From Rozella allomycis CSF55 (Eukaryota): a DNA stretch of 47,740 nucleotides. Shown in pieces: positions 6,393 to 43,861 of this stretch. The stretch lies in contig KE561067.1 in NCBI GenBank assembly GCA_000442015.1, positions 62,001 through 109,740 of the forward strand. The letters are read 5' to 3'. The first letter of the stretch is position 1, and each line of letters starts with the position of its first letter. The position numbers were made by a program, and so were the translations under genes. The notes under the pieces are model-generated. The model was not told where the DNA came from and made no database searches. It was given only the letters and a program-made list of their open reading frames with translations.

Positions 6393-6845
6393 TAACGGCT
6401 CGTAATCTTGCAGCCGCAATTTGACAACTTCATGTGGCCTTTAGAGGCGGCATATTGAATAGCCCCATTTTCGCCAGCATGTCGGAAATGCCAAATGGGC
6501 ATTGTCACAAGCACTTGGATCTACTCGAGAGTCTTGTAGCAAAATTGCAACAACTTCCACGTGACCATTAGAAGAAGCTCTTATAATAGCACCATTGTCG
6601 GAGGCACTTGGAGTTACTCTAGAATCTTTTAGCAATAATTTAACAACTTCCGCAAGACCATTTATGCAGGCTACCCAAAGAGGTTCATTGTTTTTTACAC
6701 TTGGGTCCACTTTTGAATCTCTCGACAAAGGTTTAACACATTCAGTGACACCATTCTGACATGCAAAGTAGAATGAATTGTTAACAGTTGCTGGAGAAAA
6801 ACATTTTTCTTGCAAGACATTAAGAATATCAACCAGCCCCTCATA
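6393..6845 (-). pseudogene. Degenerate DSRVDPS-type ankyrin-repeat gene
   Basis: About 3-4 34-aa repeats with frameshifts at the 3' end and no clean start. Confidence 0.75.
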
Positions 6846-6971
6846 ACTTTTTTATGTTATCCAGAATTTCCATACATTCTTTTACGGTCAATAATTTGTA
6901 GGAACAAACAAGATAGACATACAATCAATAGGAAAAATATATAATTTATTACCCTAAAATCATATAAAACG

Positions 6972-7838
6972 TCACAAAATAACTCTACCATCCACCCTAG
7001 GATCTTCTAGCAAAATGCTGACAACTTCATTTCGGATTTTCTTGAAAGCATTGCGAAGAGCGTAATTGTTACAGGCACTGGGATCTACTCTAGAATCTTT
7101 CAGTAAAGTTTTAACAACTTCCACATGACCATTTTCAGCAGCCCATCGAATAGCAGCATTGTTAGACGAACTTGGATCTACTCTAGAATCTTTTAGCAAA
7201 ATCTTAACAACTTCCACGTGACCATAATCTGCAGCATATCTAATAGCACGATTGTCGCAAGCACTTGGATCTACTCTAGAATCTTCTAGCAATATTTTAA
7301 CAACTTCCACGAGGCCATTTTCGGCTGCACATCGAATACAATCATTTTGACAGGCACTTGGATCCACCCTAGAATCTTTAAGCAAAATATTAACAACCTC
7401 TACATGACCATTAGAGGCAGCACATCGAATACAATCATTATCACAGGCACTTGGATCTACTCTAGAATCTTTCAGCAAAATTTTGACAAATTCCGCGTGG
7501 CCGTATCTGGCAGCATATCGAATGGTACCATTGTCGTAAGCACCTGGATCTACTCTGGAATCTTCAAGCAACATTGTAAAAACTTCAACGTGGCCATATT
7601 CGGCCGCATATGTTAAAGCACCATTGTCGAAAGCACTGGGATCTACCCTTAAATCACTCAGCAAAATCTTAACAACTTCAACATGGTCATCAGACATGGC
7701 GTTTCGAATAGCACCATTGTCGCACGCACTTGGATCTACGCTAGAATCTGCAAGCAAAATTTTAACAACTTCCACATGACCATATTCAGCAGCATATCTA
7801 ATAGCATCATTGTCGCAAGCACTTGGATCTACTCTAGA
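6972..7838 (-). CDS. Ankyrin-repeat protein, about 8 tandem 34-aa (102-bp) units; 5' end lost at N7839
   Basis: Repeating DSRVDPSACDNxAIRYAAxxGHVEVVKILLE; intronless. Confidence 0.92.
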   Translation of the reverse strand, partial: SRVDPSACDNDAIRYAAEYGHVEVVKILLADSSVDPSACDNGAIRNAMSDDHVEVVKILLSDLRVDPSAFDNGALTYAAEYGHVEVFTMLLEDSRVDPGAYDNGTIRYAARYGHAEFVKILLKDSRVDPSACDNDCIRCAASNGHVEVVNILLKDSRVDPSACQNDCIRCAAENGLVEVVKILLEDSRVDPSACDNRAIRYAADYGHVEVVKILLKDSRVDPSSSNNAAIRWAAENGHVEVVKTLLKDSRVDPSACNNYALRNAFKKIRNEVVSILLEDPRVDGRVIL

Positions 7839-7839
7839 N

Positions 7840-7914
7840 ACCAAATTTGAATTAATTATGGCCTGCATTGGTATTTTGATTGACATGATAGAGGTGTTGC
7901 AAAAGGAAATTTGA
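7840..7914 (+). repeat. 3' fragment of small capsid-linked ORF, copy 3
   Basis: TKFELIMACIGILIDMIEVLQKEI* matches TKFEEIMVWIGILIDKIKMLQK* of copy 2. Confidence 0.7.
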
Positions 7915-15867: not shown

Positions 15868-15934
15868 GTGGCACAGCAAAGAAATGAGCCACGTATGAAT
15901 CGGCCTTCTAAATGAAATATGCTTAAATAATTAT

Positions 15935-16736
15935 TTATTTCCTGTATTTGTCTCTTATTCTATGTAAAAAATATGAGAACACATATAAAAGTAAAAAACC
16001 ACAGAAAAGTTTGAGATACCACACGTGAGCGTTTGGAGCTTCCAAGTTCAAAAATCCGTAAACCCAGAACCTGTCTCCGTGATGATTTGTGAGAAACAAA
16101 CTAAGAATCCATGCTAGACACACATATAAAAATATAATCAAAATGAAAAATATGATGTGAGCAAAGAAGAAAGTGAAATTGTTGATATATGCGTCTATGA
16201 AAATCAAGGCAGTATCTAGGCCATGTACACTAATATTTAGCCACATTTCGACTCCGTCTCCGTTTTCACTTGATCTAAGGAACAGCCAATGCGTGATTGG
16301 CACCACAAGATGAAGAACGAATAAACTTTCATACCAAATGTTAACCAACAACGATTTTAATGTCACAATATCATAATCAACATTTTTCAACTTGACAGTG
16401 TAAAACAAAGTGGTCTAATATGTCAATATAAGTGGGTTTCTTACCAAAAAGTACATTGTTAAACTGGCATGGCTTATGTTCGTTAGAAAAACAAACCAAT
16501 AACCATCGTTAAAACTAAATACTAGAGTTGATATTAAAACAACTGAGGAATATAACGCCAGTATTGACTTTATCATTATAACAATTTTTGGGTTTATCTT
16601 CCTCATACACCGCAATCGATTTGTAGACAAAGGACTCAAACTCAATCTAAAATTAAGTGGGGTATTTTGCAGTATACGTTTTAGCAATTTGCAAGTTTTT
16701 ATCAGGATTGTGTACAGCGTTTAAATCCATTCCCAT
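15935..16736 (-). CDS. FAR-17a/AIG1/rolling-stone-like membrane protein, paralog 2 (2 introns)
   Basis: WFVFLTN, SVHG and FWVYGFLN motifs; introns of 31 and 30 nt. Confidence 0.8.
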
Positions 16737-17059
16737 TTACTTTTTTGTGGCTGAGTCTGTGAAAGAGTTTTTGGCCGTGGTATATTGAGAGGCTTTAGAA
16801 ATATCATATTCTTTTTTTAAAGAGTTAGCTTCAAAATTATATATTTGTTATTAAATTGTTGTTTAAGCGTAGTAATGATAATTATTATATATTCATGAAA
16901 TAGAAATATATTTGTCCGCTAGAAAAGAATTTAAGATGATTAACTTGACCATGATGAAAGCAAAAAGGGTAAATTGATTTTGATTACTATTTAATGACTC
17001 AAGTGGCTCCTCTCAAACTTTAGGCCTTAAATCTTAATTAAGTTAGATATATATTGGGT

Positions 17060-17884
17060 TTATTTTCTATACTTATCTCTTATTCTATGTAGAAAATATG
17101 AAACAATATATAAAAGCAAAATGCCAGAGAAAAGGCTTAGATACCACACATATGCATTTGGAGCATCCAAGTTCAAAAATCCGTATACCCAGAACTTTGA
17201 GCCATAAACATCTTGAAGTCCCAAACTGAGAATCCATGCTAGGCACAAATATAGAAATACGATGAAAACAAACAATAAAATGTGAGCAAAGAAAAAAGTG
17301 AATTTGTTGAAATATGCATCTATGAAAATCAAAGCGGTATCTATCCCATGTACACTGACATTTAACCACACGTGCATATTATCACTACGTTCACTTGACC
17401 TGAGGAAAAGCCAGTACGTTATTGGCACCACAAGATGAAGGGCAAATACAGTTTCGTACCAAATGTTTATAAGCGTCGATTTTAGTGTCACCATATCAGA
17501 GTTAATACTGCCGTATTTGATTATATAATAGGTAGTAGTCTAAATTGGTAATGTTATCATGCTCCATACCCAGAAGTACATTGTTAAACTAGCATAGCTA
17601 ATGTTGGTTAGATAAACAAACCAATATCCATTGTTAAATTTAATTACTAACGAAGTTATTAAGACAATTATAGAATATAAGGATAAGGCGGATTTTAACA
17701 TTATAGCGTTGCGAGGATTTAACTTCCACATAGAGCGTAATCTATTTGTAGATAAAGGCAGCAATCCAAAAGCATGCATCAGTCTAGTTTTAACCGCCGG
17801 GTTCGGCGTACTTTCATGCGTGTTAGCAATTGGCTGATCCGTATTGTGTATGACGTTAAGCTCTATTTCGTTTTGATTTCGCAT
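17060..17884 (-). CDS. FAR-17a/AIG1/rolling-stone-like membrane protein, paralog 3 (recent tandem duplicate of paralog 2)
   Basis: High similarity to paralog 2, with a shared 30-nt intron position. Confidence 0.8.
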
Positions 17885-17951: not shown

Positions 17952-19901
17952 ATGCTTCCCAAGACGAATGATCCAACGTCCTGGAAAAAATATTTTGAAT
18001 CACGATCGGATTATAATGCGTTAAGGATGTTACAGTTATTTTCCACAGCCGTTCAACTCATCCCACAATCCCGTTATAAAGAAGACGAAAATTACCTTAC
18101 TCTTCTGCTCAATTATGCGATTTTATTGGCGTATGTAAAGAATATAATAGTTTCAAATAGGAAAACAGAGATTATTCTGATGTTTTTGACCAGCTGAAAT
18201 CTATCAACCATAAAGCTTACGATGAAAACGAATTCGTGTTGAGAACCAGATTAAAATTACTTCAAATGACTGGTATAATTTTAAATTACTGATTTTAAGA
18301 CGAAACTTATAAAGCTGAGGACATTTTAAGAGAATCTCATTTGAATTCTAATTTGATATCTGATTTGCGTGAAAAAATAGAAGCTGGTGAGAGTGTAAAT
18401 CTTGGGTTTAATGTATAAATTATTGAATGTTTAAAAAAGTTGATCTACAATCCCTTCAGAGAGCAGGATGCTGGTGATGATGTGGACACAAGTGACGAAA
18501 AGGAGAACGAATATGAGGAAAACAAATATATTAATTCTAAGCCAGAGTCTACAGGAAAAGTTCGCAAGTCTGGACTTTGTAATTTTGATTTTGATTGTTG
18601 ATTAGCGGGCAAAGCAATGAAACTGAAAGACATTTTAGCAATGGCGGAACAAGATGATGAAAATGAATGTGCAAACGTTTCCACTTTGACTGCAGAACAA
18701 ACCTTTGGTCTTTCTGAATGTACCGTCAATTCTTCAATTTTGAAGAGCCCTGATAAAACTAAGCCTCTATGTGAGATTGAATTGGCGGGAAATCTAAGCC
18801 CGCCTTCAAGATTAAATGAAAAAACCGAAATTATAGAGGTTATTGAAAAAACTGAACATGATTATCAAAAATTTAAAGAAAACATACCTAAAACTCCTGA
18901 TGTTGAATTCAATACAGTTGAGAAAGATTTAAATCAGTTAATGAAAGAAATAAAGCCAAAATTGATTTCCTTTGGGGAATCTCAATATTTTCGGCTCCGG
19001 ATGATTGGTCGAGGTGGCTCGAGTAAAGTTTATCAGGCGTTGTCGCCTACTGGAGAGTTGGTGGCACTTAAAAAGGTATCTCTTGATAATTCTGATCCTG
19101 AAATAATAAATGGCTATTTTTCAGAAATTAAACTTTTAAATGCACTTCAGAATTCAGATTGGGTGGTTAACTTGAAGGAACATTTTTCAGACTCTAAAAA
19201 TTTGTTTATTGTAATAAATACATTTTACGTTTTTAGGTTCTAGAGTTGGGCGAAGTCGATTTACATCATTACCTAAAGCAAGTCAAGGGAAAACCTGCCG
19301 TCATTTATAATCCCATGGTAAAAAGTATTTTCAGCCAAGTAAGCAACTCTTTTGTCTAATTTATGATAATTACGGCAGTTAAATCTCTTCATGACTTTGA
19401 TTACATCCATTGTGACTTAAAGCCAGCAAACTTTATCTTAATTGGCGGGTTTTGGAAACTCATAGATTTCGGAATCAGCAAAAGAGTAGAAAAAAACCAT
19501 ACTAGCGTCATCAGAGAAAGTCAAGTAGGTACTGTCAGGTAAAAATTCTACTTTGCAATTAAAGCTACATGTCACCTGAAATGATCATTGACTCACAAAA
19601 TAGAAATAATGGTGTCTCAAAGGTATTTTTTCTTTTTGATTTTAATGAGATTGGAAAGCCAGCTGACATTTGGTCTATCGGATGCATTTTGTACCAGTTT
19701 GTTTATGGACAACCCCCATTCTCGCACATACCCTCTTTAGTGCAACGGATAAAGGCCATTATAGATGATTCTTTTCAAATTAAATTTAATGAGAAACCTG
19801 AAATGTCAGTTTTGATAGATATCACTAAAAAGATCCTCGTCAGGCATACCAAGTCTAGACCTACAATCGAAGATTTAATAAATTATTCGTCAAATTTTTA
19901 A
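17952..19901 (+). CDS. MPS1: Mps1/TTK spindle checkpoint kinase (8 introns; GT-TG intron at 19339-19365)
   Basis: TPR-like N-terminus; IGRGGSSKVY, ALKKV.L, ELGEVDL, IHCDLKPANF, KLIDFGI, RESQVGT..YMSPE and DIWSIGCILYQFVYGQPPF. Confidence 0.93.
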
Positions 19902-19960
19902 AGCGTGACAAATTAAATATCTTTATTTTTTTAAATTAGCGATATTTTAGTGATTGTTAA

Positions 19961-20974
19961 TCAATGGCACGAGGTTTGTTTGTCGGCTTCTGCCACCTTG
20001 TAACGTCCAAACACAAAGAATCCAGTCACGGCGCCAACGATTATTGCCGTACATAAAAATCCATTATATGTCATAAATACCATCATTAAGAAGAAAGCAT
20101 AAAACGTATGGACACCATGCAGTAGGGATCTTATCGCCTGTTGCTTCCATGACCACGGACAAGAGTCGCATGAATTGTTTCTCTAAAACCAAAGAAATAT
20201 ATGATACTTGATGTTATTATCATACATGCGCCTCAGTAACCCAAACGCCTCAAATAGCACCGCTAAAAGAAGAATTGCAATGGTAGAGACGGCAAGTGAA
20301 GTATCAGAATGTACTGTCCACCACTCAAAGAAAACATTGTCAATTCTTGAATCCCAGTTCCAATACATCTAAATGGAGTGGAATCCAGGACTTTACTTTC
20401 ATCATGTGTTCCATGGGCATGTTTTGACTGTTATCTTCCATGCCATGATCCATTACGGCTTTCTTTCCNTTGTTTGTCGGCTTCTGCCACCTTGTAACGT
20501 CCAAACACAAAGAATCCAGTCACGGCGCCAACGATTATTGCCGTACATAAAAATCCATTATATGTCATAAATACCATCATTAAGAAGAAAGCATAAAACG
20601 TATGGACACCATGCAGTAGGGATCTTATCGCCTGTTGCTTCCATGACCACGGACAAGAGTCGCATGAATTGTTTCTCTACAACCAAAGAAATATATGATA
20701 CTTGATGTTATTATCATACATGCGCCTCAGTAACCCAAACGCCTCAAATAGCACCGCTAAAAGAAGAATTGCAATGGTAGAGACGGCAAGTGAAGTATCA
20801 GAATGTACTGTCCACCACTCAAAGAAAACATTGTCAATTCTTGAATCCCAGTTCCAATACATCTAAATGGAGTGGAATCCAGGACTTTACTTTCATCATG
20901 TGTTCCATGGGCATGTTTTGACTGTTATCTTCCATGCCATGATCCATTACGGCTTTCTTTCCTCCACAACACAT
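19961..20974 (-). CDS. Ctr copper transporter; one gene represented twice across contig join N20469
   Basis: Met/His-rich N-terminus, MYWNW, MMVFMTYNG (MxxxM), GAVTG and C-terminal SCH. The left copy lacks the start and the right copy lacks the stop. Confidence 0.9.
19976..20962. other. Assembly overlap of about 494 nt duplicated around N20469
   Basis: Near-identical copies abut the N; one substitution seen, in an intron. Confidence 0.85.
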
Positions 20975-26446: not shown

Positions 26447-27899
26447 ATGTGGATAATCTTTTTTATCCTTATCATGGTTATCCTGCTTGGAAGACTCTTC
26501 AGGACTAAGAAGGTCGTCTTTTTCCATCCCTTTTGTATGTCGTTTGGTGGTGGTGAACGTGTTTTGTATACGTGGATGAAGTTTTTGAAAAATGATAAAG
26601 AAATAATGATTTTAACCGGAGAGAAATCAATAGATATAATGAAAATCAGGGTAAGTTTTTACCTTGTTGAAAATAGGAACGATTTGATATTGATTTGTTN
26701 AATAGGAACGTTTTGATATTGATTTGTTAAACTACCCGATAAAAGTTGTTTCATTGCACACAAGAAGATTATTGGATCCCCTCTTGTAATAATTTATGAT
26801 GATAGTCACAGATTTCCTATAGCAACTTTATTTTTCCAAATTTTAGGTTCTTTAATCATAGGTTTGGATTGTTGCGCCAAATTACTTTTCAAAAGTCCTG
26901 AAGTTCTAGTAGATACAACGGGGTGCGCTTTCATCTACCCAATAATTAAATTGTTCCTTGGTTGTAAAATTGTATCCTACGTACATTACCCTTTCATAAG
27001 GTAAAAATTGGTTGGTAAAATGAGAGTTCCGATATGCTTCAAATGGTTTCAAAAAGGGAATCAAATTATAACAACAAAAATTATATCACTAATAACAGTG
27101 CATTGACACAAGTTAAACTATATTACTACAAAATTCTATCTTTTGTATATTGTCTATGTGGTTCATTTGCTGATGAAATCCTCGTGAACTCAACGTGGAC
27201 ACACAATCATATCATCGAATTATGGCAAAACCCCGAAAAGACTCACATTGTTTACCCCCCATGCGGCATTGAAAAACTAATAAACATTGATATAGTAAAG
27301 CCAAGAAATCCTATAATACTATCTATCGGGCAATTTAGGTATTATTTTGATAAAATTTAAATAAGAAAGGAAAAGAACCATCAGTTGCAAATAGAGGCCT
27401 TTGCAAAATCTAATGCCAGGTCTACGCATAGGTTGATATTAGTCGGCGGTTGCAGGAATGAAGAAGATTATAGTCGCGTCTGTGAGTTAAAATCATTAGC
27501 GAACATTTTAAATGTATCAGAGAGAGTAGAATTTAAAGTGAACGTGAGCTTTGATGAACTGTACAATCTCCTTACCCTTGCAGACATTGGAATTCATACA
27601 ATGCAAGATGAGCATTTTGGAATATGCGTTGTTGAATACATGGTATACTTTGCATAAATACAATTTAGGCTGCGGGTCTTATTCCCATCGCTCATAACTC
27701 AGGTGGCCCCAAATTGGACATTGTCGATGAAAAATGTGGATTTTTAGCTAAAAATGCTGAAGAATATTCGAATTCTATTAATGCCATCCTTTCAATGTCA
27801 ATTAGGAAAAAGCAAATGTACCGAGAAAACGCACGATTGAAGATTGAGCAAACTTTTTCAGAAAGTCAATTCGCCAATAATATAGAATGCTTATTTTAA
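26447..27899 (+). CDS. ALG11: Alpha-1,2-mannosyltransferase Alg11 (5 introns; N26700 overlap)
   Basis: FFHPFC..GGGERVL, YVHYP.ISSDML, NSTWT.NHI, VYPPC, EHFGICVVEYMAAG and HNSGGPKLDIV. Confidence 0.95.
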
Positions 27900-29505: not shown

Positions 29506-30563
29506 CTAGTTTGTGTATGGTTCAAGTGTTTTCATCGCTGTAGAATATGCAAAGAATGTAACCGCGTTAGTTGGAAATGCTCTCACTATCGTTGCATTTA
29601 GTCCTCTAAAGAAAAAGTTTATGCCATGATTCTTATAATGATCCTTAAAAACAGCCCATGTATTTCTATAACGAAAAGGTTGATCGAAATGTTCCGACTG
29701 CATGACTGTCTTTACTACGTCAAACGGATAAGTTGTTATCCAACTGCAAATACCCGCCATTCCACCTGCAAACATTAAAAGCATTGGATTTAACTGAGAT
29801 GAGTCTCCGTCTTTCGAAAGTTTTCTGCAAATGTACTCGTAAGATGAAAAATAGGCACCGTAACTTGGCGTTTCACGTAAAATAGTAGCCGATATTCCTC
29901 TAAAACATCCTCGAAACCCTTTAACGCGATAGATTCTAGACAAACAATTAAATGTCCCTTTATATGCATTTCTGTCTCCTTTTTTGACTTGATTCTGAAG
30001 CTGAATTTTGGCTAATTCTGTTGGCCCAGAAATGATGCTGTTCAAAAATCCTGATCCAGCACCGGCAACAAAAATTTGCTCTAAAGAAGGTTTCCTTTCA
30101 TTTCACTATAAAGTTATTACTCTTTGGGATCATTTAATTGGTAATTTAGGATAGATCCATAGACTCCAAAAAGGAATGAGTTGACAAGAGTCACACCAAT
30201 CATTGGCGCTGATATTCCTTTTAAAAGACCTAGAGCCAAAAAATGAAAATAAATCGTTTTACTGATTCTTCTTTGACAATCGTTTTAAAACAATGAATGG
30301 TTCCTTTATACTTTGGGTTTACAACATCTTGACTCTGTAAACGGACCTATTAGATAAGATAAAAAGTATTTAAGTATTTACTTTGACGGTATCAAAAGGT
30401 TGACCTGCTAATACACCTCCAAGACCTTTCATTAGGATATTGCATTGTTACCGGCGAATGTTCCAGAAATAAAGTTAGCTATGCTTGGATGAATGAATCC
30501 TTGTACATTGTAATCATCAGTTGGATTAATTTGCCCCGTATCTAAATTTGATGAATCTGCCAT
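29506..30563 (-). CDS. Mitochondrial carrier, SLC25A29/45 / Ymc-like (4 introns; GT-TG intron at 30237-30262)
   Basis: Three Px[DE]xxK repeats (PFDTVKVRLQ, PTELAKIQLQ, PFDVVKT); RETPSYG and RAFPTN. Confidence 0.92.
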
Positions 30564-30826: not shown

Positions 30827-33800
30827 TTATTTTTGAATTGGCTGCAGATTATTTAATATCAGAGTGGCTAATGCAGAACCAATTACAAAGTTGCCTTCAT
30901 TTGTTATGTCCTTTAAAGTTGAAATTAAGGTAGAATCACACGGAAAATTTGGATTTTGCCATTGTTCAGCCATTTTTAGTAAAAGTTTTAGTAAATTGAT
31001 TCTAATATTTGGATGATTCTTAAGTTTGTTAATTTTCCCGATGAAAGACTCAATAACGGAAGGAATTGTCAATGAGAAACATATGTCTCTTGAGTCTGTT
31101 ATTAATTTAAACAAAGAGTTGGTTATTGATTCTAAACTCAACGTCGCATAATTGCACAAATCTATTAGAAAAGTTAGGTTTTCATTCAACAGCAACGTTT
31201 TCTCCACATAATCCCTATCTTCATTGAACCAAGAGCAAATGGCTTCTAAAGAATTTGGAGCCCAATATTCATCTTCAAGCATTCCAATTAGAAACAAAAG
31301 CAAATCATTTTCCTTTAAAAGTGGTCGACATTGGCTAGTTCGGGCCATTTCACAAAGAATTGGAATTGTTAGCGATTTTCTACTTCCACCTCCAACAAAA
31401 GTTAGTTTCATTAATTCAGGAATTACATTATTGGATGTAAATCTAAAAATTCTGCTAGAGTTTAACCTGAAGAGCTTTAGGCCAATCAACAAGGCTTGAT
31501 TTTTTATTTCCTCTTATAAAAAACAATAATTCTGTACACTTATAAACGCATAATTTGGCTCCTTTAAACAATCCGCCAGAATCTCAATGTAGTCCAAATG
31601 TTCCAGTAAAGGATGTGAAATTTCCAAATCACATATGTTCCTAAGTACTTTAATCCAGAGAAGAATGTGTTGGTTGCTTAGTTCATAGAATAGTAATTGA
31701 AAATCTATTTATTACGAAACCATATATCATACTAAATAATACAGCATTCGTGCAGAACTTTTCTTTAGTACCATGATCTGCATTTGACAAAAGCAATAAT
31801 ATTGATAAAGCATCCTTGCATATTCCTTGTGATATTTCATCATCCTTAATGCTAAAATCATTTATTATTTCAATAAATCGAAGAATGTGCTGTTCACAGG
31901 ACAATATCCTACAAATGTCATTTTTAGAGAAATGGTGTTTGAAAAGGTTGCCAATGCAGAAAATGCATCGTGCGATAACGCCACGATCGGATGAATTCAA
32001 AACATCTAACATGACTTTTACCCCATCACAGGCAACAAATGTTGCAACTATTTCTTTAAATGAACAAATAATTTCAAGTGAAATGGAAAATGTTTCTAAA
32101 CATTCGTAAAATGGGAATCTTAAAANACATTCGTAAAATGGGAACCTTAAAAGAATAGGAATTCCTCCTAATTTTGAAAACTTGTCGATGTATTCAAAAT
32201 CCTTTCTAACAATCAAAAATTAAAATAATATTATTATATTACTTGATTAAATAAGTTCAAAACGTGTTCTGATCTATAATGTTCCAGGGCCTGGATAAAG
32301 TCAAAATAACCTTTAGATTTGATAAACGGTAAACGGGCTATTGGATACTTTCTAATCCCAGAAACCTAAATAATAATAAGCCAAATATAATACCAAATTT
32401 TCACAGTGCAACTTTATTTGACTTTGTTCATATCGTCCACATTGTAAAAGGGAATCCCAAGACATCTCCAGCCATTTTATTTCTTCTCTTTCTTCAATTG
32501 GCACTACTATGAAATCTTTAGACTCAAGCCTAATTAATTCCAACTCTGCCAGGTCATCAATTGAATCTGCAATCGATACTTTCATTTTGCTTATTTTTAA
32601 ATCCGCGTCATCATTTAGCTTAAATGCCAAATTATAATCTTCATTTTCATCCTCAATAGTAGAAGAAAAATTTATTTTATTAGGCGGACTGGAATTTTCA
32701 TTCTTAGACCCTTGCACAAATTTCAGTAACGTGGAAGCGTCCACGTCATCCCAATCGTCATCATCTCCTTTTATATCGCCTATCATACTAACGTTTTCAT
32801 CGATTAGTGACGATTGGACTATTTGTTTGGATACGTACTCCCCCTTTCGAACCACAGAACCCTCAGCAAATTCGCTATCATCGATAGAATTCACAAATTC
32901 ATCCAAGTGGCCCATGGCTGATTCAAAGTTTTCTTCATCATTAAGCATATGCTATATTTTTCGATTAAGATTATAGAATACCTTTTCATGGCCTTTTGTA
33001 ATCCATGGGTGACGTAGAAGCTTTGAGGCACTCACCCGCAAATTGACATCCTTTTGGAAAGTAAGCATCAGAAAATCTTTAAGAGCCTAAGTTTTAATCA
33101 ATTGGCATTTTGCTACATTAGATATTCCGTCTGGAAGCGGTGGATGCTCATCATTAACGATGCGATACAATGCTGCCATTGGAGACAGATGAAAGTATGG
33201 AGGTTGGCCTTGAATTAATTCAATAGTAGTGCAACCAACACTCCATATATCCGACCCAGTGTTAACACCTGATAATTCAATGACTTCAGGTGCCACTTAA
33301 TTTGATAGTATTTAGCTTTATTACTCCAATAAGGCGAGCCTATTATCATCGAGTCGTCTTGAGTGTCACTAAATCCCACGCTGACACCAAAATCTGCTAG
33401 TTTCACCCGACCATCTTTTGTCGTCAATATATTGGCTCCTTTTATATCTCTATGAATAACTCCTTGGTCGTGGAGAAAACAAAGCCCTTTAAGAACTTGC
33501 GATATATAAAAGCTAACCAATGATTCAGGAATTTTTCCAAACTTTTTACAAATTGTTACCAATGAACCATTTTCGCATAGCCTAACAATCAAAAAATGGC
33601 TCTTTACTCTAACATTATATTCAAGTATCCGTCTTCTTCTGAAGACCCGATATATTCCACAATGTTGTCATGTTTGAGCCGTTTTAACAACTCTATTTCA
33701 GCCTGTTCTAAAGCGTTAATGTTATTACTCTGATAGCTTCCAACTCTGATTTCTTCATGCTTTCGCATTTAACTTGTTTAATCGCTATACAGTTTCCCGT

Positions 33801-39594: not shown

Positions 39595-42500
39595 ATGAAT
39601 GACTTTTACCAGGAAAAAATAATAGAGGGTGAATTTAAATGGACAAAATTTCACACTATATACAAAAGATTAGCATGTTGCAAAAGTGTTTTACTTTCCG
39701 TCTACGATGAACAAGGGAATGAAATAAAGAAAATCAGTAAAGAAAAGGATATTAAATATGTGGAATGGCACCCCCAACGCAAATTGATGGCATATGCCAG
39801 CGGTGATGATGTATATGTTTGGAATGAAACTGAAGATCGAGAAAATGTCAAAAAAGTACAGGGTAATAATATCGTTTGTTGGAATGCAATCGGAAATAAT
39901 ATTTTGATTGGAAAAGAGGTTAAATCATTTAATATAAATTAACGTTTAGGATGGAAGCGTTGTTTGTTTTAATGTAGAGGTTAGTGGAAAGATGGGCAAA
40001 GAGAGGTTGTTGTATGAAAACAAAGGGAAAAAGAGAAGAATAAATAAATTATATTCTGCGGAAGGGGATATAATTGTAATAATTTACGATGGAGATATTG
40101 TGATAATTAGCAAGGAAGACATTGTTGAGAGTGATGTACAGGGGAAGATAAAGGAATCTTTCCTAAAAGAAAATAAGTTGGTAGTTGTTTGCGAAGATTT
40201 GTTTGTTAATAAATATGATTTAGAAAGTTTTGAAAAGATTTCAATAAAATTGAGTAACAAGGGAAGAGTTGAATGTGTAACATGGATTTGTGGCAAAGAA
40301 GGAGTAAAAATGATAACGAGTGATGAAAAAAATGCGATAAAAATTTGGGATATTGAAGGATTGGGATGTGAAGAGATTGAATTAAAAGAAGAGTTTAAAT
40401 CCAATAGAATCACATGTCTAAATAGTTTTCACTCGGATATTCTGGTAGGGACTGATTCTGGCCATATATTTAAAATTAAAGTCGGCAATCAAAAGAACGA
40501 TGAAATTATCGACAAGGATTTGAATAAAGACAATAAATGCCAACCAACTGAAAAATTTCATGAACTACAATTGACTGAATTTTCTGGCGGAGGTTTCATT
40601 GAGCAAATTTTCTTTCTAAAAGAAATGATTGGAATAAAGTTGAAGAACTTTGTCAAGATATTAAGTTTGAAAAAACGATTAATTAGAAAAGAAAACGAAC
40701 AGGCTTTAATACAAAGTGATTTAAATAAAATAATTCTACTTGATAATGAGCGAAAATTTGAGATAAAAGAAGACTTTGAAATTAAGGAATTTTCAGGTTC
40801 TAAAAATAGATTTGCGGTTTCAAATCTCGAAGACATAAAAATTTACGAAGATTTTAAACAAAAAATTAGTTTAAAAGAGAACCATCAAAGAATTTATATG
40901 ATTAATGAGGCAAGTGACACAGATAATGAAAAATCAGACGGGAAAGGTAAAATTAACAAGTCTTCAATTATAGGAAAGAAAAATCCACAATCCTTCTTGG
41001 CAATCGTTGATTTTAATTCTTTAAAGATATTTGATTGGAAAAAGGGAGAAACAATATCTGCATTGGCTTTTGAAGAAATTATTTTAGAATCTATATGTTT
41101 TAACGACAAAATAATCTTAATAAATTCAAATAGAGAATTGATTTTAATTAAATTCGATAAAATTGTGGAGACAATGAAATTGGATTTCAATCATGAAATT
41201 TATCAAATTGAAATGAACGAAAATTTCGTTGGCATCTCTTCCAGTAAAAGCATTACTTTTATTTATAAAGAAAACCAATTATTTTTATTAAATTTAAACA
41301 CTTTTAAATATTCCAGCTTCTCAATAAACTCTGATTATTTTGTATTCGATTCGAAATTCCCCAATTTGATGCTTATCCAGTCCACAAATATAGTACAAAT
41401 CTTAAACTTTTATAAATTAAAGGTTTCTTTTGGATTTATTACAAATATACTGGAATTAGAGATATTTTCAACCAGATATATTTATGAAATTTCGCGATCT
41501 ACTAATGAAATTTCTGAGTCTGAAAATGCTCCCGCGAACGCTACAAAAACTTTTCAAATAATGTTTTCTAATTTTAATTATTTTAGTATATTAGTTTTAG
41601 AAAACAATGATTTTTGTTTGAAGAGGATAGATTTCAATTTTGACTTTTCACTGGATTTTCTATATGGCATTTTAATCAACGGCAAATTCTTCAAAGTTGA
41701 AGATGAAAAAATTCTTAAGATTATGGCAAAGTTCTATTTAAATAATTTTGAAAAGAATTATGAAATACTGAAAGAGTGTTTGATTAAGTTAAAGAAACCA
41801 ATTTTCATTCTTACTGGAGACCTTTCAAGGGACAAAATGATCATAAAATCTATTCTTGGTATTCCCAACGAATCCGAAAGTAATATTATCGAGGATAAAG
41901 GCAATATCCCTGTTATAAACGAAAAATGCCATTTTAACATCGAAAAACTACCCAATGACAAGAATACAATGCCTAAAAACAATAAAATAGATATCGAAAC
42001 TAATTTTGCGACACCATATTTTCAAGGTGACGACGAATTGGATCGTGAAATTTGCAATCTGAAAAATTCCATGGAAAACATTCAATTACTTAAAAATTCA
42101 TTTTCAAATAAATCCTGTTTACTTCTTAATTATCCAGAAGCTTACAGAATCGTAGGCAGGTTGGAATTTGATGGAAAAATTAACAATAATGACTTTCCTT
42201 CCCTTTCATGCTTTGAAACCTCAAATTCGTTCAACTTGTTCAAAGGGCAATTGTTGGAATCTGTAGGCTTAATATCGGAAGCTGATATGTACTACAAAAA
42301 GTCTAATAATTACTTTTATTCAAATAAACTATCAAATTCTGTATTCAATATCGATCAAATCGATGACAAAATGACCCTTTTTCATGTCGCTAAATCTTTG
42401 CAGACCTCAAATGTAAATTCCTAATTATATCTTCAAGAGGTTAATCAATCTATAAAGGCTCTTACCAAAGCTGGCTGCTTTAGATATGCGTCTCTCCTAG

Positions 42501-43861
42501 CAAAAGAAAATCATTTAGATATTGATTTATTGAATTTAGCTTTGATGGCCCCTCTTTACATTCTTCTTGATGCTGCTCAGTAACTCCTGCTTGATCTTGT
42601 AAAAAGATATTTTGAGAGCGTTAAAGATTATGAAAAAGCTTTTCTCTTATACAAGAAGGCCAATTATAATGAAAATGCACTGATTGTAGCCTTCATTGGC
42701 CAAAATCCTCATTTGATTGATCAGATCATCGCTTGCTCAATTCAATTGAGCATAAAAGAGGAATTAATAAATGACATTTCCATGTATCTTTCAAAACTAG
42801 GTATTATATTATGTATACTTATTTCTAGGTAATACAATCGCAAAAAGTTCAAAGGCAAAACTGAAAGTATAGTAGATTTGTTAACCAAGACCGGAAATCA
42901 CTCCCAAGTACCTCAATCGCGTTCATTTATTTCAAGGCAATTAAGATTTGTAAAGAATTTGGTATTAAAATGCCAAATCAATTGGCATCCATAGCATTTA
43001 AATCTCAGGACTCTCTGATTGACCTTGCCAATCTTTGTATAGAACAAGAAAATTACGAAGCTGCCTGTAAAGCTTTTCTTCAAGTATTAATGAATTAATT
43101 AATTTTCCTAGGCTAACGATTATGTCAATGCTGCAAAGTCATTAATAAAAACGGGAAACTTGGATAAAATAATTAAATTTGCAAGTAACGAGCTATATTT
43201 TCATGTAAAGATGTCGCCGGCGCTAAAGATAAACAAGTTTACATGTTGACCGCCAATTATCTTCAAACCCTGGATTGGCGGTCCAATGAATCTTTGCCAA
43301 GGGCTATTATTTCCATACTAACAAAAGCAAAATCATTTACTTCCCTAAACAACTTTTATTTTCAGTTTGCTTCTTTTGAAATCCATGATTATCAAAATTA
43401 CGAAAGAGTAACGATGTGATTTTTCCTGCGTTTAAGGCTTTGAACATATACAATGAAATGATAAAAATCAATCGCATGGGAACAAATACTAAAATAAACA
43501 TGAATGACATAATTAGAAAAATTGATTTGATTTCAAAGTACTTGGAAATGAAAAAGGCGCCAAGCTTGAGCCATTGCATTAGCATGGCAAATAAATTGCT
43601 CGATATACCCGACATAAATGTAAAACCTTAATTTTAGTCTCAAAGGATCATGTCAAAATTCTTGATATTCACTCTGGTTTGGTTTACAAAGCTTGTGAAT
43701 TCATGGAATGGTCAAAAGCTAAGGATTTGTTAACGAATATATCTAACATCCATTCGAACTTGATTGATTGTGTTGATTTTGATACTATTTCTGAAATTTG
43801 CACGCACAACAATATTCCACTAGAAACATTCATACAAAGTTACGAAAATGATTTAGAATAA
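39595..43861 (+). CDS. IFT140: Intraflagellar transport protein IFT140 (divergent WD40 N-half, TPR C-half; about 11 introns)
   Basis: EWHP..LMA; spliced C-terminus AKENHLD..L.NLAL, AAKSLIKTGNLDKIIKFANV, ANYLQTLDWR and EIHDYQNYERAL. Confidence 0.88.

Follow-up and report, generated by a model that had tools for sequence, protein, structure and literature searches.

How could a gene for a conserved protein kinase stay productive if one of its introns ended in TG instead of AG? This question is raised by an Mps1/TTK-like kinase gene in a 47,740-nt stretch of contig KE561067.1 of Rozella allomycis CSF55 (positions 62,001 to 109,740 of the forward strand; hereafter the window, from whose first letter all coordinates are counted). 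Within the kinase domain of this gene a 27-nt element at 19339-19365 starts with GT and ends with TG. Comparison of the DNA with related sequences indicates that the element is probably an old U2-type intron whose AG was mutated to TG and which would be removed exactly at the TG in at least part of the transcripts, yielding the one mRNA with the full coding sequence of the kinase.

The GT...TG element of the Mps1/TTK-like kinase gene

The window consists of eukaryotic DNA of low GC content (about 35%), and its exon for a queuine tRNA-ribosyltransferase (TGT) is 99% identical to a Rozella allomycis CSF55 protein at NCBI. Two further proteins of this organism, EPZ33342.1 and EPZ33349.1, are identical to window translations except at the junctions discussed below. 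The kinase gene has an open frame across 553 codons once eight tiny introns of 26-27 nt are removed; the seven introns other than the element are all of the GT-AG type and no further defect was detected in the gene. To judge from its sequence, it is an Mps1/TTK protein kinase gene: Pfam Pkinase matches fall on four exons, database matches carry the names TTK or Mps1-like, and human TTK accounts for each of the 22 best PDB matches (E 4e-56; e.g. 4d2s and 3hmn). The gene, the element and the motifs that bear on its splicing are as follows.

18027..19901, + strand: Mps1/TTK-like kinase gene, 9 exons, 8 introns, 553 codons
18027-18134, 18161-18272, 18300-18412, 18440-18578 and 18606-19210, + strand: exons 1-5
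19237-19338, 19366-19538, 19565-19622 and 19650-19901 (including the TAA stop), + strand: exons 6-9
19339..19365, + strand: candidate GT...TG intron, 27 nt, phase 0, between Gln CAA and Ile ATA of helix alphaE
19339..19344, + strand: 5' splice site GTAAGC
19356..19360, + strand: branch-point-like motif CTAAT, its second A (19359) 6 nt before the terminal G
19357..19359, + strand: TAA, in frame if the element is retained and the only stop within the 27 nt
19364..19365, + strand: terminal TG in place of AG
19377..19378, + strand: first downstream AG, ending 13 nt past the TG
19325..19378, + strand: alternative 54-nt GT-AG intron, in frame, used in both public annotations

The element reads gtaagcaactcttttgtctaatttatg, with ...AGCCAA on its 5' side and ATAATTACG... 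on its 3' side, and thus takes the form GTAAGC...CTAATTTATG. Its borders are unique, since a shift by one base in either direction alters the mRNA. The GTA-type 5' site and the length of 27 nt place it with the tiny U2-type introns, from which it departs in lacking the 3' AG. Introns of the U12 type carry an extended 5' site of the form RTATCCTT, which the GTAAGC of the element does not resemble. CTRAY is the fungal branch consensus, and the looser motif NTRAY was found in only 31 of the 44 candidate introns of the window, at scattered distances. Pairing of the 5' site at 19339 with the first downstream AG would remove 40 nt, shift the frame and bring up a stop 14 codons further on. Removal of exactly 27 nt leaves an open reading of 392 codons from 18617, or of 553 codons from 18027. 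An initial annotation of this DNA had placed a GT-TG intron at these borders and had described an in-frame stop upon retention, a frameshift upon use of the nearest AG (cggcAG), a CTAAT motif close to the TG and colinearity with helix alphaE of Mps1; the sequence agrees with it in each of these respects.

Homology was used to decide what has to be removed. The Pfam Pkinase profile is matched from position 3 to 75 in the exon ending at 19210 and resumes at position 107 from 19366 onwards, and the 34-codon exon at 19237-19338 fills the gap between 75 and 107, so that only the exact removal of 27 nt is colinear with the family. A hidden Markov model (HMM) profile built from 13 Mps1 homologues, to which the 27-nt model aligns without a gap, ranks the gene models in the following way.

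27-nt intron removed: 369.3 bits, no gap
Element retained: 356.1 bits, 9-residue insertion
Annotated 54-nt intron removed: 346.1 bits, 9-residue deletion

When all in-frame GT...NN solutions were enumerated, one canonical alternative of moderate length was obtained, the intron from 19325 to 19378. It underlies both public Mps1 proteins, RKP18209.1 (P0125) and EPZ33342.1 (P0136), in which ten residues of helix alphaE are replaced by one (...NPMVK-I-KSLHDF...). The sequences HCDLKPANF and DFG together with an ungapped helix alphaE occur in the 27-nt model only, whereas the annotated 54-nt model fails in this respect. Likewise, the 27-nt model shares the HxDLKPxN and DFG motifs and the alphaE pattern with the kinase domain of human TTK, whereas the public Rozella proteins are without nine residues of alphaE and without the N-terminal part.

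Both public proteins begin inside 18617-19210. Four upstream exons at 18027-18616, separated by GT-AG introns of 26-27 nt, lengthen the gene to 553 codons and are absent from both proteins; they were joined to it by frame continuity only and no Pfam match was found in them. RKP18209.1 in addition is without six residues encoded at 18803-18820. As this stretch does not begin with GT and is ungapped in both read contigs described below, the difference points to an indel in the other assembly or to a choice made during annotation.

Contigs from two DNA sequencing runs of two studies, X1 and X2, which are about 1% apart, were used to check whether the T at 19364 is real. The X1 contig (depth 213.8) covers 18400-19918 and differs from the window at 4 letters, and the X2 contig (depth 282.2) covers 18400-19931 and differs at 15. 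Neither has a single difference from the window between 19252 and 19458. Because both contigs read the window's letters here, the T is not an assembly error; an A at 19364, which the initial annotation had named as a finding that would overturn its reading, is found in neither contig. Contigs of this kind may drop rare variants, and those from two other runs, X6 and X7, leave the element uncovered. The window differs from both X1 and X2 at 18889, 19066 and 19181, at 19066 also from X6 and X7, and these positions may reflect mistakes in the consensus of the window assembly or a third haplotype within it.

The age of the intron position was addressed by scanning metagenome contigs, in which 80 Mps1 loci were found. 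Fifteen of these had a break in the match near the junction, and six of the fifteen were inspected. Three (L069, L040 and L033) have a GT...AG intron in phase 0 directly after the homologous Gln codon, at the border to the codon that follows, two (L078 and L057) have a GT...AG intron one codon earlier, and in the remaining one (L030) the match breaks elsewhere. No close relative of Rozella was present among these metagenome loci (best segment identity 52% or less). Since canonical introns occupy the same boundary in three of the loci, the comparison indicates that the intron position of the element is an old one, and the simplest account of its TG is a derived A-to-T change.

The two haplotypes represented by the window and X2 allowed selection on the gene to be estimated. 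Across Mps1 there are 13 coding and 2 intronic differences between them, and both carry the TG. Eight of the coding differences are synonymous and five are non-synonymous, which corresponds to a ratio of non-synonymous to synonymous substitution rates (dN/dS) of 0.16; the binomial P for the 8:5 split is 0.0016 at a neutral expectation of 0.207 and 0.018 at 0.30. Downstream of the element the differences amount to three synonymous changes and one conservative one. The presence of TG in both haplotypes together with the low dN/dS suggests, within the limits of so small a sample, that purifying selection has acted on the gene with the TG in place.

A second GT...TG element and the introns of the window

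A search for further GT...TG candidates brought up a second case, which is located in the gene of a mitochondrial carrier.

30237..30262, - strand: candidate GT...TG intron of a gene for a carnitine/acylcarnitine carrier-like mitochondrial carrier, 26 nt, phase 0, gtaaaacgatttattttcattttttg
30268..30311, - strand: alternative 44-nt GT-AG intron, implied by the public protein EPZ33349.1 (P0287)

Here, the Pfam Mito_carr profile is matched at positions 31-58 on the exon 30263-30346, which extends one residue further, and at positions 61-92 on the exon 30120-30236 from its second residue, so that the step from 58 to 61 across the cut makes the removal of 26 nt exactly colinear. The nearest AG lies 7 nt past the TG and would define a 33-nt intron with a stop after two codons. 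In-frame GT-AG solutions do not exist below 41 nt, and all of them delete conserved residues. The 44-nt model of EPZ33349.1 loses conserved residues in this way and translates the putative TG intron as coding sequence. Against an HMM profile of 72 homologues, the TG model scored 381.0 bits, compared with 347.1 for EPZ33349.1 and 343.6 for RKP20915.1 (P0137), a protein from another assembly; in both proteins 16 conserved residues are swapped for 10 intron-derived ones. RKP20915.1 has a Leu where an AG would yield a stop, which makes the TG, or at least the lack of an AG, independent of the window assembly. Two of the ten intron-derived residues differ between EPZ33349.1 and RKP20915.1, compared with 1 of 292 elsewhere (Fisher P 0.003); on this protein comparison, the annotated stretch behaves like an intron.

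An intron census of the window was obtained with Pfam searches of 422 open segments followed by enumeration of the possible junctions. This Pfam colinearity approach replaced codon-bias scans for non-AG introns, which were noisy, yielded a length peak and candidate lists only, and scored both TG cases poorly. The census comprises 34 accepted GT-AG introns, of which 28 separate segments that belong to a single Pfam family or a single annotated protein, four are the upstream Mps1 introns accepted by frame continuity and two are carrier introns consistent with the annotated protein. In length they measure 26 nt (11 introns), 27 nt (11), 28 nt (4), 29 nt (3), 31 nt (2) and 32, 34 and 35 nt (one each). 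With 22 of 34 introns at the modal 26 or 27 nt, the lengths of the Mps1 (27 nt) and carrier (26 nt) elements fit this population; the canonical alternatives to the two elements would be 40 or 54 nt and 33 or 44 nt long, respectively. All 34 of these other introns end in AG, so that TG introns are a small minority of 2 in 36 accepted for the window, and GTA is the first triplet in 31 of 32 accepted GT-AG introns.

The base at position -3 of the accepted introns varies (A 13, T 11, G 5, C 3; n=32), and three accepted introns end in ..agAG and thereby skip an AG two bases upstream (e.g. 20181-20207 on the - strand, 27001-27026 and 42413-42439 on the + strand). Both properties suggest that the 3' site may be picked by distance. 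Counted across the window, GTA...AG pairs peak at 26-28 nt (15, 10 and 11) over a background of about 1.6 per length.

The whole-window pair scan returned 11 TG-only candidates, nine of which were dropped because they were antisense to a Pfam-matched gene, scored low or terminated at a likely start codon. A third GT...TG candidate has an in-frame 41-nt GT-AG alternative, and as no Pfam match was found for its gene, there was no homology by which to choose between the two models.

32214..32242, - strand: third GT...TG candidate, 29 nt, 93% A+T

At an IFT140-like junction (42829-42875) only GT-AG solutions of 44 or 47 nt were found, the longest candidate of the window; an unseen micro-exon is possible at this place.

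Alternative explanations and a possible mechanism

Four other explanations of the Mps1 element were weighed. Use of the 54-nt GT-AG intron, which would give a protein without nine residues of helix alphaE, obeys the GT-AG rule, keeps the frame and has been adopted by both NCBI proteins, and one other junction of the window needs 44 or 47 nt. However, the 54-nt model falls 23 bits short of the 27-nt one and shortens the helix that precedes the catalytic loop by nine residues, discarding residues that fit the family on both sides of the element (Q-I-I-x-A-V compared with Q-[IM]-L-x-A-V). The three metagenome loci have their intron where the 27-nt element lies, none of the 34 accepted introns (26-35 nt) is as long as 54 nt, and the comparable annotated workaround in the carrier costs 34 bits; we consider this splicing quite unlikely. 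Retention of the element, with its TAA decoded as an amino acid as in a ciliate-like code or read through, would produce a 9-residue insertion and draws on the facts that 27 is a multiple of three and that the TAA is its sole stop. The organism is a fungus, however, as the TGT exon indicates, there is no TAA or TAG in the other 552 codons and the gene terminates at a TAA where the kinase homology ends. Retention also scores 13 bits lower, and the 26-nt length of the carrier element makes reading through it impossible. A ciliate-type code was rejected on these grounds, and retention as a whole appears very improbable. That the T at 19364 arose in sequencing or assembly, or stems from a minor allele of an intron whose real end is AG, gains a little from the nine single Ns of the window and from its three differences from both X1 and X2 within 1.5 kb, but the agreement of two contigs of depth 214 and 282 with the window throughout 19252-19458 leaves it a negligible chance.

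The fourth explanation takes the TG as a disabling change. Under this explanation either the 40-nt intron ending at the AG at 19378 is cut out or the element is retained, both of which lead to a premature stop (after 14 codons in the former case, at the TAA in the latter), leaving the gene either as a young pseudogene or heavily down-regulated. Human AG-to-TG disease mutations do activate neighbouring AGs without splicing at the TG, according to PMC2374985, and this point also weighs directly against splicing at TG in Rozella. Set against it are the dN/dS of 0.16 over 13 differences, with TG in both haplotypes and constraint that extends downstream of the element, and the 553 codons free of any other defect; neither further disabling changes nor a dN/dS near 1, as expected of a pseudogene, were observed. 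Only a single Rozella Mps1 cluster was found in a word-based protein search and no spare copy was seen. Furthermore, a second conserved gene within the same 48 kb shows the same change at the same intron length, which is unlikely under random inactivation and expected where TG is tolerated. Inactivation of the kinase gene is accordingly given a small chance, and removal of the 27-nt element at its TG is regarded as probable.

Several observations weigh against such removal. The case for cutting at the TG is built on DNA and comparison, and the selection test is based on just 13 differences. Among the sequencing runs found to contain the stretch there is none of RNA, and an RNA run, X9, contains hardly any of its words. 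A canonical in-frame alternative exists in the 54-nt intron, whose 5' site, GTATTT, is of the kind used by the Mps1 intron at 19623. Both public gene sets chose canonical introns. The IFT140-like junction at 42829 implies that introns longer than 35 nt may occur. Moreover, GTA...TG counts have no peak at 26-28 nt (3, 0 and 2), so that the class is rare at best, and the -3 base before the Mps1 TG is an A and not a pyrimidine. For the carrier, the TG was seen in the window and, as a TG or at least not an AG, through the protein RKP20915.1. One of the two differences in its annotated stretch concerns the Ser codon that spans the 5' border of the intron and is Arg in the other assembly; if this Arg is encoded by AGA or AGG the GT is destroyed, if by CGT it is kept, and the protein cannot distinguish between these cases. 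Taken against this background, the sequence statements of the initial annotation hold and its splicing at the TG is likely, while it had overlooked the in-frame 54-nt alternative at 19325-19378 and the fact that the TG and the following AG form a tandem of a known kind.

If the 27-nt element is spliced at the TG, the dimensions of these introns may provide the reason. Introns of 26-29 nt would have no room for a polypyrimidine tract, and their -3 position would be nearly unconstrained, so that, at the second catalytic step, how far a 3' site lies from the 5' site and the branch point could largely decide whether it is chosen. A UG that falls at the modal distance (27 nt in Mps1, 6 nt after the adenosine of CTAAT) would keep the terminal G and might be usable as an acceptor. 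The AG 13 nt further on would form a TG-AG tandem with it, and its use would give a frameshifted, prematurely terminated product; out-of-frame AG variants of this type could drain expression. As a more general proposal, which we put forward tentatively and hold to be somewhat doubtful, the 26-29-nt introns of Rozella allomycis may be measured by a molecular ruler with UG as the sole constitutive acceptor in several per cent of them (2 of 36 here, possibly hundreds genome-wide). If this proposal were true, the proteins concerned would be systematically damaged in both public gene sets, which were built on the GT-AG rule.

Known TG acceptors and consequences for public gene sets

Acceptor sites ending in TG are already known. 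In U2-dependent introns of human, a TG acceptor is always part of a TG-AG tandem, with the AG at most 28 nt away, and serves as an alternative, never as the sole 3' site (Szafranski et al. 2007, PMC2374985). With an AG at 13 nt (Mps1) and 7 nt (carrier), both Rozella elements lie within this limit, and they share with the human cases the GT 5' end, the terminal TG and a purine as the first exon base. They differ in that the human TG is an alternative beside a productive AG, whereas the Rozella TG would be the only productive site and the AG variant is out of frame. The Rozella introns are also only 26-27 nt long, without a pyrimidine tract, and have A (Mps1) or T (carrier) at position -3.

PMC4528330 describes TG as the commonest single-base acceptor variant in the FlyBase annotation of Drosophila melanogaster, with 23 annotated GT-TG introns, 19 of them supported by RNA-Seq, and a similar alternative splice for 22 of the 23. 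For Ganoderma lingzhi, 22 GT-TG introns among about 92,000 (0.024%) are given in PMC11590231. The dinucleotide pair is the same in Rozella, where 2 of 36 introns in one window is far above the Ganoderma fraction and also above what the 23 cases of the fly genome represent. Short Rozella introns of about 30 nt are mentioned in PMC6349667, and no report of non-AG splicing in Rozella was found in the open-access literature on its introns and splicing. Compared with the ordinary tiny GT-AG introns of this organism, the two elements have the same length, GTA start, AT-richness and a stop or frameshift upon retention, and they differ from them in the TG end.

What would be novel, if RNA confirms it, is the TG as the only productive 3' site, occurring naturally and in a mitotic kinase of the essential type; no such TG-only site came to light in the genome-wide human screen (PMC2374985). 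Ultra-short introns without a pyrimidine tract and with a loose -3 position would then offer a simple system for the study of site choice in the second step of splicing, and the rate of TG introns would be about a hundred times that reported for Ganoderma. In the public Rozella sets, Mps1 is damaged by the absence of nine alphaE residues and of the N-terminus, and the mitochondrial carrier by the exchange of 16 residues for 10. As Rozella is a key outgroup for fungi and Microsporidia, such workaround models can distort alignments as well as presence/absence calls.

Three other features of the window were recorded, and the X1 and X2 contigs diverge from the window near 19918-19931.

19976-20469 and 20470-20963: nearly identical tandem copy (about 494 nt, a single N at the joint), which duplicates a Ctr copper-transporter gene
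15934-16564 and 17059-17689, - strand: tandem paralogues of a rolling-stone (Rost)-like membrane protein, 73-80% identical in DNA and 1125 nt apart
6483-7904: nine copies of a 93-nt period in an ankyrin-repeat gene

The tandem copy of the Ctr gene may be an assembly artefact. The 31-residue repeats encoded in the ankyrin-repeat gene are 65-79% identical to one another.

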